A stretch of 45,624 nucleotides of DNA from a virus, in UHGV virus genome UHGV-0133287; one strand, written 5' to 3'. Position 1 is the first letter of the stretch; each line of letters starts with the position of its first letter. The notes under the pieces were generated by a model. The model searched no databases. It saw only the letters and a list, made by a program, of their open reading frames with translations, and was not told where the DNA came from. Shown in pieces: positions 26,268 to 44,563 of the stretch. Both the position numbers and the translations under genes were made by a program.

Positions 26268-26343
26268 TGGTGGCCCCTACCGGATTTGAACCGATGACCG
26301 TGCGATTATGAGTCGCCTGCTCTAACCACTGAGCTAAGGGGCC
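26268..26343 (-). tRNA. tRNA with CAU anticodon (Met or lysidine-type Ile2)
   Basis: 76-nt minus-strand sequence GGCCCCTTAGCTCAGTGGTTAGAGCAGGCGACTCATAATCGCACGGTCATCGGTTCAAATCCGGTAGGGGCCACCA folds by hand into a cloverleaf: 7-bp acceptor stem, GCTC/GAGC D-stem, CUCAUAA anticodon loop, TTCAAAT T-loop, encoded CCA. The 5' half resembles E. coli ileX as I recall it. Confidence 0.8.
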
Positions 26344-37562: not shown

Positions 37563-37586
37563 ATAAAAAAGGCCCCCGAAGGGGCC
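37563..37586 (-). terminator. intrinsic terminator (minus-strand; convergent transcription stop)
   Basis: GGCCCC-CGAA-GGGGCC hairpin preceded on the plus strand by an A run, giving a U run on the minus strand. Confidence 0.45.
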
Positions 37587-38456
37587 TAATCGCTACTTGC
37601 TGCTAATGTTTATCGTCACATTCAGAGCGTTATCAGTAATCTTCCAACCCTCCCCATGTGGCGTAAACAAAGCTCCAGTAACAACGATAAAAATACACAT
37701 ACAGTATTTTTTCATTGTGTGGCCCTTACAGGCCGTTTCACGGCATCTCCACCGACGAAAATGACGCGAGAGCAAGCACTCCGCTTGTGCTTGCGTGTAC
37801 GGCAAGTGGATGATCCTTTCCTTAAAGTCGGTGCCCGGGTGCGAATCGGCGAAAAGGCCCCAAGCCATATTACACGTCCTCGCCTTCATAATGAAGGAAT
37901 AACAATTGCTTTTATTACATGTAATTACATCCGAAGAAGTTAAAAAACTTCATTCTGCATGAACTAAGGAACTAAATTTCTTTATATGAATAGTGGACTA
38001 TTCACCTCAGTTGAGTAAGAATAGATACGCCGCTTGTGCTTGCGTGGTTGTTTACACAACGACGTTATGCTGAAAGGACCGCGAATCCGATCAGCACGAA
38101 AGAACCGTCCTCAATAGGGCGGTTTTTTTGTTTCTGCCTACCAATAAACCCACGCTATGTGGTTGTCTCTGTTAAAATCCCGCCGTATTGACATGAATGC
38201 GCCATTGGTGGACACTTTCCGAGCCGTAGCAAAATCTACGGTCGGGATTGGCGTCCCGATTGCACAATGGCGCATACCGCGTTAGCGGTTTTTTTATGCG
38301 TAAAGCACTGCTACACCCGAATTATGGTGGGGCGTGCGGGGGCGGAGAAATCCGCGCCGGTTTGTCATTGTGCCGGTTACGCCAACCCTGTACGTCTCAC
38401 CACCATATTGATTGGCGTCATTGGTGGTGATAGTTCCTTTAATCGGAGATATCACA

Positions 38457-38648
38457 ATGACAAACCTACCCCATGACTATTACGTCAACCTCGTAAAGAT
38501 CCTTCTCAAGAAAGCCTCATATGCCGATAAATTCCGCCTGGCTGAAATCATCGAGCGCGAAGCTATGCGCATCGCCAGCAACGATAACGCTGTTTCTGAC
38601 GCAAAAATCTCCCTCGTAACCAAAGTAGTTATGGGAGGTGCAAAATGA
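38457..38648 (+). CDS. small ORF translationally coupled to antirepressor (icd-like position)
   Basis: 63-aa ORF (ATG 38457, GGAG RBS) whose stop overlaps the start of the next gene (ATGA); the ORF track shows a longer version starting 38412. Confidence 0.35.
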   Translation: MTNLPHDYYVNLVKILLKKASYADKFRLAEIIEREAMRIASNDNAVSDAKISLVTKVVMGGAK

Positions 38649-39787
38649 AAACGCTTCCGACCGTTAACACCCTACAGCCTATCCTGCATAACCAGATCCC
38701 CGTTATCACTAGTGAACTTCTGGCGCAGTTATACGGAACAAAAATCAAAAACATTTCTGATAACTTTCTGAACAACACGACGCGATTCGTAGCCGGAAAG
38801 CATTACTTTAAAATTGAAAAAAACGAATTACGCGAGTTCAAGAACAGACCCGAAACAATCGGGTTAGTTGGTAAAAATGCCCGCTCCCTAATTCTCTGGA
38901 CCGAACGCGGGGCTGCACGTCACGCTAAAATGCTCGAAACCGATCAGGCGTGGGATGTATTCGAACGGCTGGAAGACTGCTATTTCAGCCAGAACGCGCA
39001 AACGGCCGCGACCGTAACCGTCTCGCCAAACAATGCTCGTGAGGTTGTCGATACGCTCAACGCCAAACCGATGTTTTACATTAAGGTGTGCAATAACGAG
39101 CCACTCACAACCTCAGCCGATGTTGCCCAGGCATTCAGCACCACAAACAATTCCATCGTTATGGCCATCGATGCGTTACGCATTCCTCGCACAGCTGCGG
39201 CGCGTCATTTCTTTAAAGAGCAACGACCGTTGGAAGGAAGCGACCGCGAAATAACAATCTATCGCATGACAAAAGACGGATTTACCTTGCTCATGGAGAG
39301 CATCGACGGTCCCGGCGTGAAAGATATCAAGCTGGCCTACATTGAAGCCTTTAACGCTATCAGCAGCGTGTTAAAAACACAGTACGAGCGCGATCTGGCT
39401 AAACGACTGTACCAGGAAAAAACGATTATCCGCGCGGCAACAGAGCATAATCGGCTATTAACGGAACCGAACTACAGGAAGGAACTAATCAAGGAGTTTG
39501 ACAAGGCAACAGGGAAAACCAAAGCGGCGCTAAATCTGCCAGCAATGACTCAGGAAAATGTGATATCAGCCTTACTTCTTGATCTACTCAGAAACGCCAG
39601 AGCACTTATCAGCTTTGACGAAAACCTGAATCCTCAACTCAAGCTACTACCACCGACAGGCAAAGTAGTCGACCAGGCTGATCACAACAGCATACTCAGC
39701 GTACTGGATGCAAACCTGCCAACCAGGACACTACAGGATCTGATAAAAACATGTGCTGATAAGCTGGCACAGAAAAGCAGACCATAA
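38645..39787 (+). CDS. putative antirepressor / phage regulatory protein
   Basis: 380-aa ORF whose N-terminal ~110 aa (ITSELLAQLYG...GAARHAKMLETDQAWDVFERLEDCYF) resembles anti-repressor N-domains; preceded by an about 700-bp structured leader. Confidence 0.45.
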   Translation: MKTLPTVNTLQPILHNQIPVITSELLAQLYGTKIKNISDNFLNNTTRFVAGKHYFKIEKNELREFKNRPETIGLVGKNARSLILWTERGAARHAKMLETDQAWDVFERLEDCYFSQNAQTAATVTVSPNNAREVVDTLNAKPMFYIKVCNNEPLTTSADVAQAFSTTNNSIVMAIDALRIPRTAAARHFFKEQRPLEGSDREITIYRMTKDGFTLLMESIDGPGVKDIKLAYIEAFNAISSVLKTQYERDLAKRLYQEKTIIRAATEHNRLLTEPNYRKELIKEFDKATGKTKAALNLPAMTQENVISALLLDLLRNARALISFDENLNPQLKLLPPTGKVVDQADHNSILSVLDANLPTRTLQDLIKTCADKLAQKSRP

Positions 39788-39791
39788 CTAC

Positions 39792-39822
39792 AAGGGGCTA
39801 CGGCCCCTTACTCTTTTCTCTC
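39792..39822 (+). terminator. terminator after antirepressor gene
   Basis: AAGGGGC-TACG-GCCCCTT hairpin followed by a CT-rich run. Confidence 0.4.
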
Positions 39823-40523
39823 TTATCAACGCCAGAGACTTTCTGAAAATCCTTTCGAATAGCGTCAGCATCACGCGCCAAGCCCATACTGGAATGCGTC
39901 GCCATATGACGAAAATGATCAACTGCCGGAAACAAAGAAATAATGGACCCAATAGCTTGCAGCAAACTCGCTTTTCTACGCATCATAATTCCACCATAAC
40001 CGATAACCACCCTTCAGACACAACCCCCCCTCCCCCCATACAGGGTGCCCTTTACCGGAGTTCCGGCCCCTTCTCAAAAGCATCAAAAAAAGCTCGAGAT
40101 CGAGTACCGGAACTCATGCCACCAGATAGCTCCACATCGTTTCCAATGCTTCGCCGCCGTGTGCGCCCTGTGGCCCACAATCATGCCATTGGTCGTCTGA
40201 TATACCTTCTTCTGCTCATAGAGCACAGGCGAGTTGTCGCACTCCTGCCTTTCTCAGACTCGACTTAGTTTAGATCGCTGTTCCTGGCTTGCGTCAGCAC
40301 ACTTTCCCCTTGTACGCATACCCGCGCGCCACTTCGCCCAAAAACACCGAACCCAACGAAGTGGCAAAGACAACGACGCGAGCGTGAGTCTGAAATGGGC
40401 ACCAGTAAAAAAGGGGTTGCAGGCGCAAAAAGATTTGATTATCTTTAGACGCAAGAAAGCCGCCCCAATCAAGAGGTGTCTTTTTAAATCCAGCCTACCA
40501 AGCAAGATTTAAATTTCAGACTG

Positions 40524-40556
40524 AAAACCGCCCGGCAAGGCGGTTTTTGTCTTTCT
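40524..40556 (+). terminator. intrinsic terminator (possibly bidirectional)
   Basis: AACCGCC-CGGCAA-GGCGGTT hairpin followed by TTTTTGTCTTTC; lies 40 bp downstream of the minus-strand HTH gene stop. Confidence 0.5.
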
Positions 40557-40596
40557 GGCGCTTACATTACACCACCATAAAACGATCCGTAAAGGA

Positions 40597-40869
40597 TCAT
40601 TTGATCCCTTGTTCCAATTCTGACGACACTTTAACCTTTTCCCATACAAGGGTTTGCAGCCTTAACAGAATCGCATCTTTATCAAGGTGTGAAAGATCCT
40701 TAACCATATCGTCAAACGACAGAACGCGAATGGCCATCTCAATGACCCTCGGCGGCTCCCCCTTCTCATATCGCTTATATGTAGCCAACGATATCCCAAA
40801 TTCTTCGGCGGCTCGCTCCTGCGTCCAGTTCATCCCACGACGCCATAATTTCAATTCATAACCCGTCAT
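40597..40869 (-). CDS. HTH-XRE family transcriptional regulator
   Basis: ORF track gives 40597-40902; the internal Met with an AGGAGG RBS is the likelier start. HTH motif TQERAAEEFGISLATYKRYEKG. Confidence 0.5.
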   Translation of the reverse strand: MTGYELKLWRRGMNWTQERAAEEFGISLATYKRYEKGEPPRVIEMAIRVLSFDDMVKDLSHLDKDAILLRLQTLVWEKVKVSSELEQGIK

Positions 40870-40897: not shown

Positions 40898-40924
40898 CGC
40901 AAAGTGTCAAAATGACACTTTGCG
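40898..40924. promoter_or_regulatory. perfect 12-bp inverted repeat (candidate operator)
   Basis: cgcaaagtgtca-aaa-tgacactttgcg immediately upstream of the HTH regulator RBS. Confidence 0.4.
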
Positions 40925-43585: not shown

Positions 43586-44563
43586 TTAATGTTGGAGTGA
43601 TTTCCAAGTCTTTCTTAACCTGTTATAACGCTGCTCAACGAGGGATCGTAAATATGCAAGGTCAGCTCCAGGATACATGCCATCAGCAAATTCCTGGCTA
43701 ACCTCTCTAGTGATTTGATGACGAAGTTCGGCCTCTCCCTTTTCCCGAACAAGACGCGCAGCTCTCTCCGCTGCTTTCTGTTTTGCCTTTATCTCTCTGG
43801 CCGTCTTCCTCTGACGCCATACATTCTCCATCTGCTCCTGAATAACAATACGCTTATAATCAGCCTCCGTTATCGCTTTTTTAAGCCGTTCGCTATTCTT
43901 CGCATTGAAGTAATTAAGTTTCTGGCTAACCGCACGTCTCCATGCTTGTTCAGTAATACCAACGGTTTCCAGCAGTTGATCACGAATCTCTATTTTCGCT
44001 GGCCAATACTGTTTATTCACCCGATCCCAGCGACGTTCATAATCAATAAAACCTAACGCTTTCAGTTGCGACAACGCCCTTGTACAGCGCGTTATAGACT
44101 TGTTCCCAGCTTCGGATACGGTAGACAGACCGCAAAAATCAGCCAACGCCTCAGCACTGGCCAGAACCCGCTTAGAAATGATGTTTACATGGTGCAAAAT
44201 CGCAGCAATCACAGCATTAATCGCCCGACGACGATGCTCGTTTATCCGGCGTTTCCGCTCTGACGGTTGATTAACGTAGAACGCAACCTCACACGTAAGA
44301 TCACGACCATTAATGCGCTGTAAAGCATCAGATAACACCAGCGGCAGCTTGTGCGTATGGTGCTTTGGAGGCTGGAACTCCGGCGACAAATTACAAACGT
44401 AAGCTGAACGTAGAGACGGCATTGGTCTATCCATATGTTCGCTCTTGCGTCCACGGAAAACCAACGTATAATGGGAGTTGTCGAGGCGCCCATGGTTAAT
44501 TGTTGGTTTTCCGTGGATGTCGCAAGAAGCCCGCAGATTTATCTGCGGGCTTTTTGTTTCCAT
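43586..44563 (-). CDS. repA: replication initiator RepA (IncFII RepA1-like)
   Basis: The central region (GLSTVSEAGNKSITRCTRALSQLKALGFIDYE) resembles IncFII RepA1 (...SITRATRALTFLSELGLITYQTEYD...) as I recall it. The true start may be the internal ATG at 44434 (MDRPMPSL, about 283 aa), because the first 43 codons overlap a putative antisense RNA and hairpin. Confidence 0.75.
   Translation of the reverse strand: METKSPQINLRASCDIHGKPTINHGRLDNSHYTLVFRGRKSEHMDRPMPSLRSAYVCNLSPEFQPPKHHTHKLPLVLSDALQRINGRDLTCEVAFYVNQPSERKRRINEHRRRAINAVIAAILHHVNIISKRVLASAEALADFCGLSTVSEAGNKSITRCTRALSQLKALGFIDYERRWDRVNKQYWPAKIEIRDQLLETVGITEQAWRRAVSQKLNYFNAKNSERLKKAITEADYKRIVIQEQMENVWRQRKTAREIKAKQKAAERAARLVREKGEAELRHQITREVSQEFADGMYPGADLAYLRSLVEQRYNRLRKTWKSLQH
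44479..44560 (+). ncRNA. candidate CopA-like antisense RNA to the repA leader
   Basis: Plus-strand promoter -35 TTGCGT (44445-44450), 16-bp spacer, -10 TATAAT (44467-44472), then about 80 nt ending in a perfect 12-bp hairpin AAGCCCGCAGAT-TT-ATCTGCGGGCTT plus TTTGTTT (44527-44560), antisense to the repA 5' region. Confidence 0.5.

Follow-up and report, generated by a model that had tools for sequence, protein, structure and literature searches.

In the ColE1 paradigm, replication is primed by RNA, as RNase H cuts the RNA-DNA hybrid and DNA polymerase I (Pol I) extends the primer. The accessory protein Rop (Rom) is optional in the ColE1 family, and antisense-controlled replicons diversify their specificity in the loop region. 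In this family the pre-primer promoter is found ~500-555 nt before the origin, and an antisense RNA of ~100-108 nt, which has a terminator of its own, is the complement of the pre-primer's 5' end. Phage P1 uses a plasmid origin, oriR, with RepA for prophage maintenance, and a lytic origin, oriL, with RepL, which is transcription-dependent. In Enterobacterales, the antisense RNA (RNAI) and the pre-primer (RNAII) form three stem-loops (PMC8683028), and in the ColE1 R-loop a stretch of rG in the RNA and a stretch of dC in the template are essential (PMC4412123). Here, a conserved non-coding block at positions 40011-40596 (both strands) of the virus genome UHGV-0133287 is described, whereby the window, namely the whole stretch of 45,624 nucleotides (45.6 kb) that was analysed, represents most of a ~48-kb circular phage-plasmid. 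The block is most probably a divergent ColE1-type origin (oriV), RNA-primed and Rep-independent, and a core element of this 48-kb myovirus-type phage-plasmid. This reading is based on sequence homology, collinear geometry, predicted structures, the pattern of conservation and universal presence in the family, while the extent of the block is given by conservation, by its boundary and by the alignment to a pMB1-type origin.

The block resembles ColE1 and pMB1 in its predicted RNAII promoter, four 5' stem-loops and ~105-nt antisense RNA with three stem-loops that ends at the RNAII start, as well as in an internal G-run and a G-rich stretch on a C-rich template ~20-25 nt before the end. It differs from them in an identity so low that blastn and the Rfam RNAI model miss it, in being without Rop, mob and cer, and, relative to ColE1, in a shorter origin-proximal G-run (G4 vs. 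G6) that is followed by an extra tract, G6AG7. Moreover, the block resides in a phage-plasmid of 48 kb that has a second replicon, dependent on RepA, whereas ColE1 is a small multicopy plasmid. The most similar RNAII starts belong to small enterobacterial ColRNAI plasmids of the MOB-suite clusters rep_cluster_2373 and ColRNAI_rep_cluster_1987 (e.g., CP056477, L036, and NZ_CP075260, L033), which have GTAATCTCATGCCCTGTAAACGAAAAAACCGCCTTGGCGGGCGGTTTT where the block has GTAATGTAAGCGCCAGAAAGACAAAAACCGCCTTGCCGGGCGGTTTT; L036 alone as nhmmer query gives E=2.2e-5. Beyond stem-loop I, however, only scattered islands align, and these plasmids measure 3-8 kb with the origin as sole replicon, unlike the element that carries the block. 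The second origin of P1 needs its own protein, RepL, whereas the origin proposed here would need no element-encoded protein.

Homology to ColE1-Type Origins

The layout of the block, in which a three-hairpin plus-strand RNA ending at a terminator is combined with a long minus-strand RNA and a G-rich tract ~520 nt further on, led to the test for a ColE1-type origin. Seven diverse ColE1-like origins from PLSDB were aligned to build an nhmmer profile, and the whole window was searched with it on both strands. The profile matches exactly once, at 40617-40524 (minus strand, E=6.6e-8), covering the RNAII promoter and stem-loop I, and the match recurs in the five relatives tested (E=1.3e-8 to 1.4e-7), with all Salmonella-type copies at ~1e-8. 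In this alignment the family RNAII -10 element GTAATCT corresponds to GTAATGT in the block, the upstream repeat GGATCT..AGATCC to GGATCA..TGATCC, and RNAII stem-loop I (ACCGCC...GGCGGT) to the complement of the plus-strand terminator.

Single origins used as nhmmer queries extend the correspondence over nearly the whole block, as positions 51-674 of a pMB1-type origin (origin at 676) are collinear with 40625-40051 (E=7.8e-5), and a second single origin gives E=0.0024. A pMB1 origin sequence proved to be 100% identical to a natural plasmid and matched >5,000 ColE1-like plasmids. Among the aligned islands are GCGCAC...GGAAACG and, next to the ColE1 origin, TGATGCT..GGGG..CGGA..GG.AAA; in the origin-proximal island TTTTTGTGATGCTCGTCAGGGGGGCGGAGCCTATGGAAAA is aligned with TTTTTTTGATGCTTTTGAGAAGGGGCCGGAACTCCGGTAAA. 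The spacing agrees with the family as well: the -10 element and the G tract are 533 nt apart here and 500-544 nt apart in the ColE1-like set, stem-loop I and the G tract 507 nt here and 473-517 nt in the set, and the 533 nt from stem-loop I to the block end compare with 499-543 nt from stem-loop I to the origin in the family.

The Predicted Pre-primer RNA and Its Antisense RNA

The predicted RNAII-like pre-primer (40011-40555, minus) is placed by homology and geometry, its start near 40555 by homology. Its promoter (40564-40593, minus) adjoins the stop codon of a helix-turn-helix (HTH) gene, and consists of a -10 element assigned by profile homology (TAATGT, 40569-40564) and weak candidates for the -35 element (TTTACG at 40593-40588, or TACGGA by homology). 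In the minimum-free-energy fold, four stem-loops form at the 5' end (40423-40552, minus), of which stem-loop I is aligned to the ColE1-family stem-loop I and stem-loops I-III are complementary to RNAI, with stem-loop IV next. The body of the RNA contains a near-invariant core (40261-40327, minus; 97-98.5% identity between lineages) with AAGGGGAAAG, whose G-run (GGGG, 40309-40306) is aligned to the internal G-run of ColE1 (ACGGGGGGTTCGTGC in ColE1, ACAAGGGGAAAGTGTGC in the block) and follows stem-loop I by 235 nt, versus 272 nt in pMB1. It is adjoined by a 9-bp hairpin, GCCACUUCG...CGAAGUGGC (40328-40365, minus; inverted repeat I7), in which relatives show double changes that keep the pair (CG to UA, UA to CG); of its single changes, three leave a G-U pair just on the minus strand, and one does so just on the plus strand. 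Both strands of the block fold better than shuffled sequences (z of -3.7 and -4.4), and the alignment-fold energy favors the minus strand (-193.7 vs. -133.1), which also has the larger covariation term.

On the plus strand, an RNAI-like antisense RNA of ~105 nt is predicted (40451-40556) with three stem-loops (40455-40484, 40485-40511, and 40518-40552), and its length and its position relative to the RNAII start match those of ColE1 RNAI. Each sequence variant folds alone into three stem-loops, except L015 and the low-quality copy of Escherichia coli ATCC 25922 (L027). A candidate promoter, TTGCAG-17 nt-TATCTT (40417-40445, plus), was read from the sequence and is below the threshold of the promoter scan; it is located in a segment (40406-40467) that is 95% conserved. 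Stem-loop 3 constitutes an intrinsic terminator (40518-40556, plus; 94-96% conserved), which was identified by a terminator scan and is the complement of RNAII stem-loop I. An initial annotation of this DNA, made from the sequence alone, had reported a strong terminator here, and this was confirmed, as the plus strand has an 11-pair hairpin (40522-40549) and then TCTTTCT. The same annotation had seen no plus-strand gene upstream of it; a function is not lacking there, however, as the terminator would close the short antisense RNA starting ~100 nt upstream.

The loop of RNAI stem-loop 1 together with stem-loop 2 forms a fast-evolving region shared by RNAI and RNAII (40468-40513, both strands; 67-70% between lineages), and the changes affect the loops as well as the upper part of the stem in stem-loop 2. 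Formal pair counting on stem-loop 2 was dropped because the gap placement of MAFFT misregisters the stem. The region presumably determines the specificity of copy control and incompatibility.

The G-Rich Tract and the Candidate Switch Points

The homopolymeric tract CCCCCCCTCCCCCC is located exactly where it was initially annotated (40024-40037) and reads C7TC6 on the plus (template) strand and G6AG7 on the RNAII (non-template) strand. Two candidate points for the switch from RNA to DNA surround it. Candidate A is the A-run 40053-40051 of the origin-proximal motif TGATGCTTTTGAGAAGGGGCCGGAACTCCGGTAAA (40051-40085, minus), which was defined by the pMB1 alignment; in the full-length alignment, where its pMB1 counterpart is TGATGCTCGTCAGGGGGGCGGAGCCTATGGAAAA, this motif has the best support, with a posterior of 7-9 at TGATGCT, and the Salmonella type has GGAAAAGG at this place. 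In this alignment GGGG at 40070-40067 is the homologue of the ColE1 G6, which puts the switch at 40053-40051. Candidate B lies near 40012-40016 in TTGTGTCTGAAGG, which follows G6AG7 up to the block end; G6AG7 starts 26 nt before the block end, and in pMB1 the G-run motif (CAGGGGGG) is equally far from the origin.

The tract also resembles a human mitochondrial element, CSB II (conserved sequence block II), which has the sequence GGGGGAGGGGGGGTTTG (PMC4176368), stops transcription and anchors the replication primer via an RNA-DNA G-quadruplex (PMC4176368, PMC3488243). On the RNAII-sense strand the tract reads GGGGGGAGGGGGGGTTG, to which 16 of the 17 bases of CSB II align without interruption, the block having an extra leading G and one T fewer. 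The two share near-identical sequence, the same non-template, RNA-sense strand and a transcription-primed origin (in the block, a predicted one), but they have no common ancestry, and the polymerases differ, being POLRMT in mitochondria and the multi-subunit RNA polymerase in bacteria. The resemblance may reflect only a general need for an rG:dC stretch, and is to be taken as a lead rather than a result.

An exact search for G6AG7TTG in IMG/VR found the 17-mer GGGGGGAGGGGGGGTTG also in ~19 unrelated viral contigs, none of which is homologous to the block or to ColE1. In four of them (L037, L044, L048, and L049) the surroundings agree as well (..caggc.. GGGGGGAGGGGGGGTTG gacag..ggccccccct), so that an element recurring in another phage group is suggested.

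Conservation and Distribution of the Block

RefSeq and GenBank annotate nothing between 39987 and 40596, i.e., between the end of a small open reading frame (ORF; 39986) and the start of the HTH gene (40597), and the block is the largest unannotated stretch of the element. Its left boundary is sharp (40010/40011), directly follows the G tract and is kept while relatives swap the left flank, which in one relative is a 636-bp ORF, in one the abutting terminator of an antirepressor and in one a Rha gene. Identity between the E. coli type and the Salmonella types amounts to 87-88% for the block, and to 69% for the HTH gene, 67% for the next gene (126 aa) and 77-78% for higA/higB. Within the block, identity between lineages is uneven: apart from the RNAII core it is high at 40406-40467 (95%) and 40514-40596 (94-96%), and lowest in the loop region 40468-40513, the promoter segments on either side of which are at 94-98%.

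Among 5,426 complete E. coli genomes, 72 match 831 bases around the block (95-100% identity), in 76 places, of which 75 sit on plasmids; the Yersinia myoviruses vB_YpM_39, 41 and 44, in which the family takes the form of infectious phages, also match (~98.7%). In PLSDB the block is present in all 62 members of the family (58 Escherichia, 3 Salmonella, 1 Klebsiella), and as the terminase gene gives the same number of records (62) and the same host make-up, the block is a core feature of the phage-plasmid family.

A search of the block for direct and inverted repeats returned hairpins only and no iterons. With 12 occurrences in the window, the heptamer TTCAGAC exceeds the 5.2 expected, and none of 100 shuffles had as many; three copies lie in 581-887 and three inside the block (sites include 40013, 40388, 40515, and 45344). 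The heptamer was rejected as a protein-binding iteron, since its 8-mer version is not enriched and its spacing is not regular.

The Carrier Element and the Neighborhood

The phage-plasmid is carried by the reference strain E. coli ATCC 25922 (NZ_CP037450). An annotated relative, NZ_CP070025, encodes P2-like tail genes, a module of terminase, portal and capsid, a CI-like repressor, ParA, the toxin-antitoxin pair HigB/HigA and an IncFII-type RepA, and no phage replication genes were found in it. In the window, the RepA gene is located at 43586-44563 (minus) and matches Pfam IncFII_repA at 1.3e-43. Despite this match, PLSDB/MOB-suite gives no replicon type for these plasmids, hence both replicons of the family escape current typing.

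To the left of the block lies an immI module of the P1/P7 type (38223-39787, plus), which comprises an isrK-like RNA, a C4 antisense RNA, an ash-like ORF and an ORF6N antirepressor ending at 39787. This module and the 62-aa ORF next to it (39798-39986) are replaced by other cassettes in relatives, with the junction always exactly at the block end. To the right, on the minus strand, a 90-aa HTH gene (40597-40869) is found, whose promoter could read through into the RNAII promoter. Directly upstream of this gene there is a perfect palindrome with 12-bp arms (40898-40924; CGCAAAGTGTCA-AAA-TGACACTTTGCG), which is likely an operator. Relatives of the HTH protein were sought in 185,579 genomes, where only loci in Serratia and Providencia were found, and in the Serratia locus that was examined (L016) the block is not present downstream of the HTH relative.

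Two further RNA genes were noted in the window. A strong match to the ryfA family at 37565-37862 (minus; 135 bits, E=1e-34) coincides with a 190-aa "helix-turn-helix domain-containing protein" of the RefSeq relatives, which may be a mis-call over an RNA/type I toxin locus. A tRNA with the anticodon CAT (26268-26343, minus) is called Met by ARAGORN and tRNA-Ile in a RefSeq relative, and is probably a lysidine-modified tRNA-Ile.

Alternative Explanations

Several observations weigh against a ColE1-type origin. By blastn, the block has no significant match to pMB1, and among 72,556 plasmids only this phage-plasmid family is found; profile/hidden Markov model (HMM) methods alone detect the ColE1 homology. 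The Rfam RNAI model (RF00106), whose gathering score is 47, reaches 18.1 bits in the window and 17.2 in the Salmonella copy, with the terminator stem as the only aligned part, and Rfam/Infernal scans gave no family for the block, be it in the window at gathering thresholds or in permissive scans of the block and the Salmonella copy. Six older plasmids of the family are not among the 1,035 ColE1 plasmids of a published census (S2 table), the tools of which were order-specific HMMs and PlasmidFinder. No Rop homologue was found; many relatives lack the 62-aa ORF just downstream, for which Pfam gives no match. Furthermore, the RNAII and RNAI promoters both fail a consensus promoter scan and have poor -35 elements, the asymmetry of G-U versus C-A pairs on helices shared by both strands is 4 versus 3 with few informative sites, and the switch point is ambiguous within 40011-40053, as homology would place it at ~40051 and geometry at ~40012. 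Finally, with an IncFII-type RepA and ParA already on the element, a second origin is not obviously needed. The presence of this presumably sufficient replicon, like the weakness of the promoters by consensus, would also suit a descendant of a ColE1-type origin that no longer fires and is kept for another RNA-based role, e.g., as an RNAI/RNAII incompatibility or exclusion determinant, or as a 3' untranslated region/antisense pair controlling the upstream HTH operon, the more so as the RNAII promoter abuts the HTH stop codon, which makes read-through from the HTH promoter likely. Such a silent origin is nevertheless distinctly unlikely, because conservation spans the whole 545 nt to the G tract and the origin-proximal motif, well beyond the ~105-nt overlap of the two RNAs, the most conserved segment (40261-40327) lies far outside this sense-antisense overlap, and the geometry of ColE1 is preserved within a few nucleotides.

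The initial annotation had considered the block a candidate non-coding RNA, which holds in kind, as two overlapping RNAs are predicted, but not in the sense of a free-standing small RNA, since both would be parts of a ColE1-type origin. An independent plus-strand RNA ending at the terminator and acting in trans to regulate mRNAs of the host or the phage would fit the strong terminator, the conserved promoter-like element upstream and a neighborhood rich in regulatory RNAs (isrK-like, C4, and ryfA-like); it is very unlikely, however, as it accounts for only ~105 of the 586 conserved bases, no part of the block is less conserved than its loops, contrary to what a conserved seed would show, and the homology is to a replication origin. 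Even less credence is given to a decayed gene or a type I toxin-antitoxin system, in which a toxic peptide from the minus strand would be repressed by the plus-strand antisense RNA. The sense-antisense layout with a structured ~500-nt RNA does resemble hok/sok, and a ryfA-type locus is 2.5 kb away, but no candidate peptide is an obvious membrane peptide, and the architecture is explained by the homology to ColE1 origins. Six of the seven mechanically called ORFs that were tested are broken by frameshifts or stops in the Salmonella-type relatives, and the seventh (40083-40226, minus) has no internal stops, yet its frame is lost via a 1-bp indel, so that no ORF is kept in frame across lineages; the three codon positions carry similar numbers of substitutions (11/8/10, 10/12/9, and 11/8/8), without codon periodicity, and a PHROG search of the block ORFs gave no matches. 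On these grounds the coding, pseudogene and type I toxin readings were rejected, and the earlier statement that 40011-40596 lacks a convincing ORF is borne out, also by the blank in RefSeq and GenBank.

A phase-variable control region had been the other initial suggestion; taken as one in which slippage in C7TC6 switches a neighboring gene, it is just as improbable. Homopolymers of 6-7 C are slippage-prone in principle, and the tract does differ in four of 22 relatives (two with C6TC6, one with C7TC5, and one with an A-to-C change giving C8), but its length is the same in the other 18, across lineages of 87-100% identity and including all four Salmonella-type copies, which are 87-90% identical overall. 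The few variants of ±1 sit in assemblies with other homopolymer differences, as in the ATCC 25922 copy, where C7TC5 is accompanied by a shorter T run at 40481; the differences of this copy look like assembly errors rather than biology. In addition, the tract is located outside ORFs and outside the spacers between promoter hexamers, and the left neighbor varies among relatives while the tract does not.

Proposed Mechanism

By homology with ColE1, both RNAs would be transcribed and the origin would be active alongside the IncFII RepA replicon, in dependence on Pol I and RNase H and with its RNA-DNA switch within 40011-40053. The promoter just past the HTH stop codon (-10 at 40569-40564) would start RNAII near 40555 on the minus strand, and the RNA would fold into its four 5' stem-loops and the conserved body, while the G-rich segments near its 3' end (GGGG at 40070-40067, and G6AG7 at 40037-40024) would stay hybridized to the C-rich template. 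The R-loop would then be cut by RNase H between 40053 and 40011, and Pol I would extend the primer leftwards. The RNAI-like RNA (~105 nt, plus strand, ~40451 to 40556), whose sequence complements the initial ~100 nt of RNAII, would block primer formation through loop-loop contacts, so that the copy number is set.

It could further be speculated, although this is rather unlikely, that the two replicons divide their labor, with RepA and ParA keeping the prophage at low copy and the ColE1-type origin serving amplification, e.g., once RNAI is overridden by transcription that starts at the neighboring HTH-controlled promoter, and that G6AG7 stops RNAII and locks the R-loop through an RNA-DNA G-quadruplex. 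If true, a bacterial virus and mitochondria would have arrived at a convergent solution for primer formation.

Concluding Remarks

In the literature, no paper was found that links phage-plasmids to a ColE1-type origin or that describes this phage-plasmid family. The proposed mechanism is a classical one, and the block is best filed as a deep-branching ColE1-type origin whose host element is unusual and which has one conserved feature out of the ordinary. Such an origin would have been missed by genome annotation, Rfam, replicon typing and the published ColE1 census, and its recognition would account for the element's largest unannotated stretch. From it follow the predictions that an antisense RNA controls the copy number and that incompatibility with other ColE1-like plasmids or vectors is possible, and the CSB II-like tract may offer a simple bacterial system for R-loop priming that depends on a G tract. 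For the family as a whole, such an origin provides a testable hypothesis of how a phage-plasmid without phage replication genes might replicate in two life styles.

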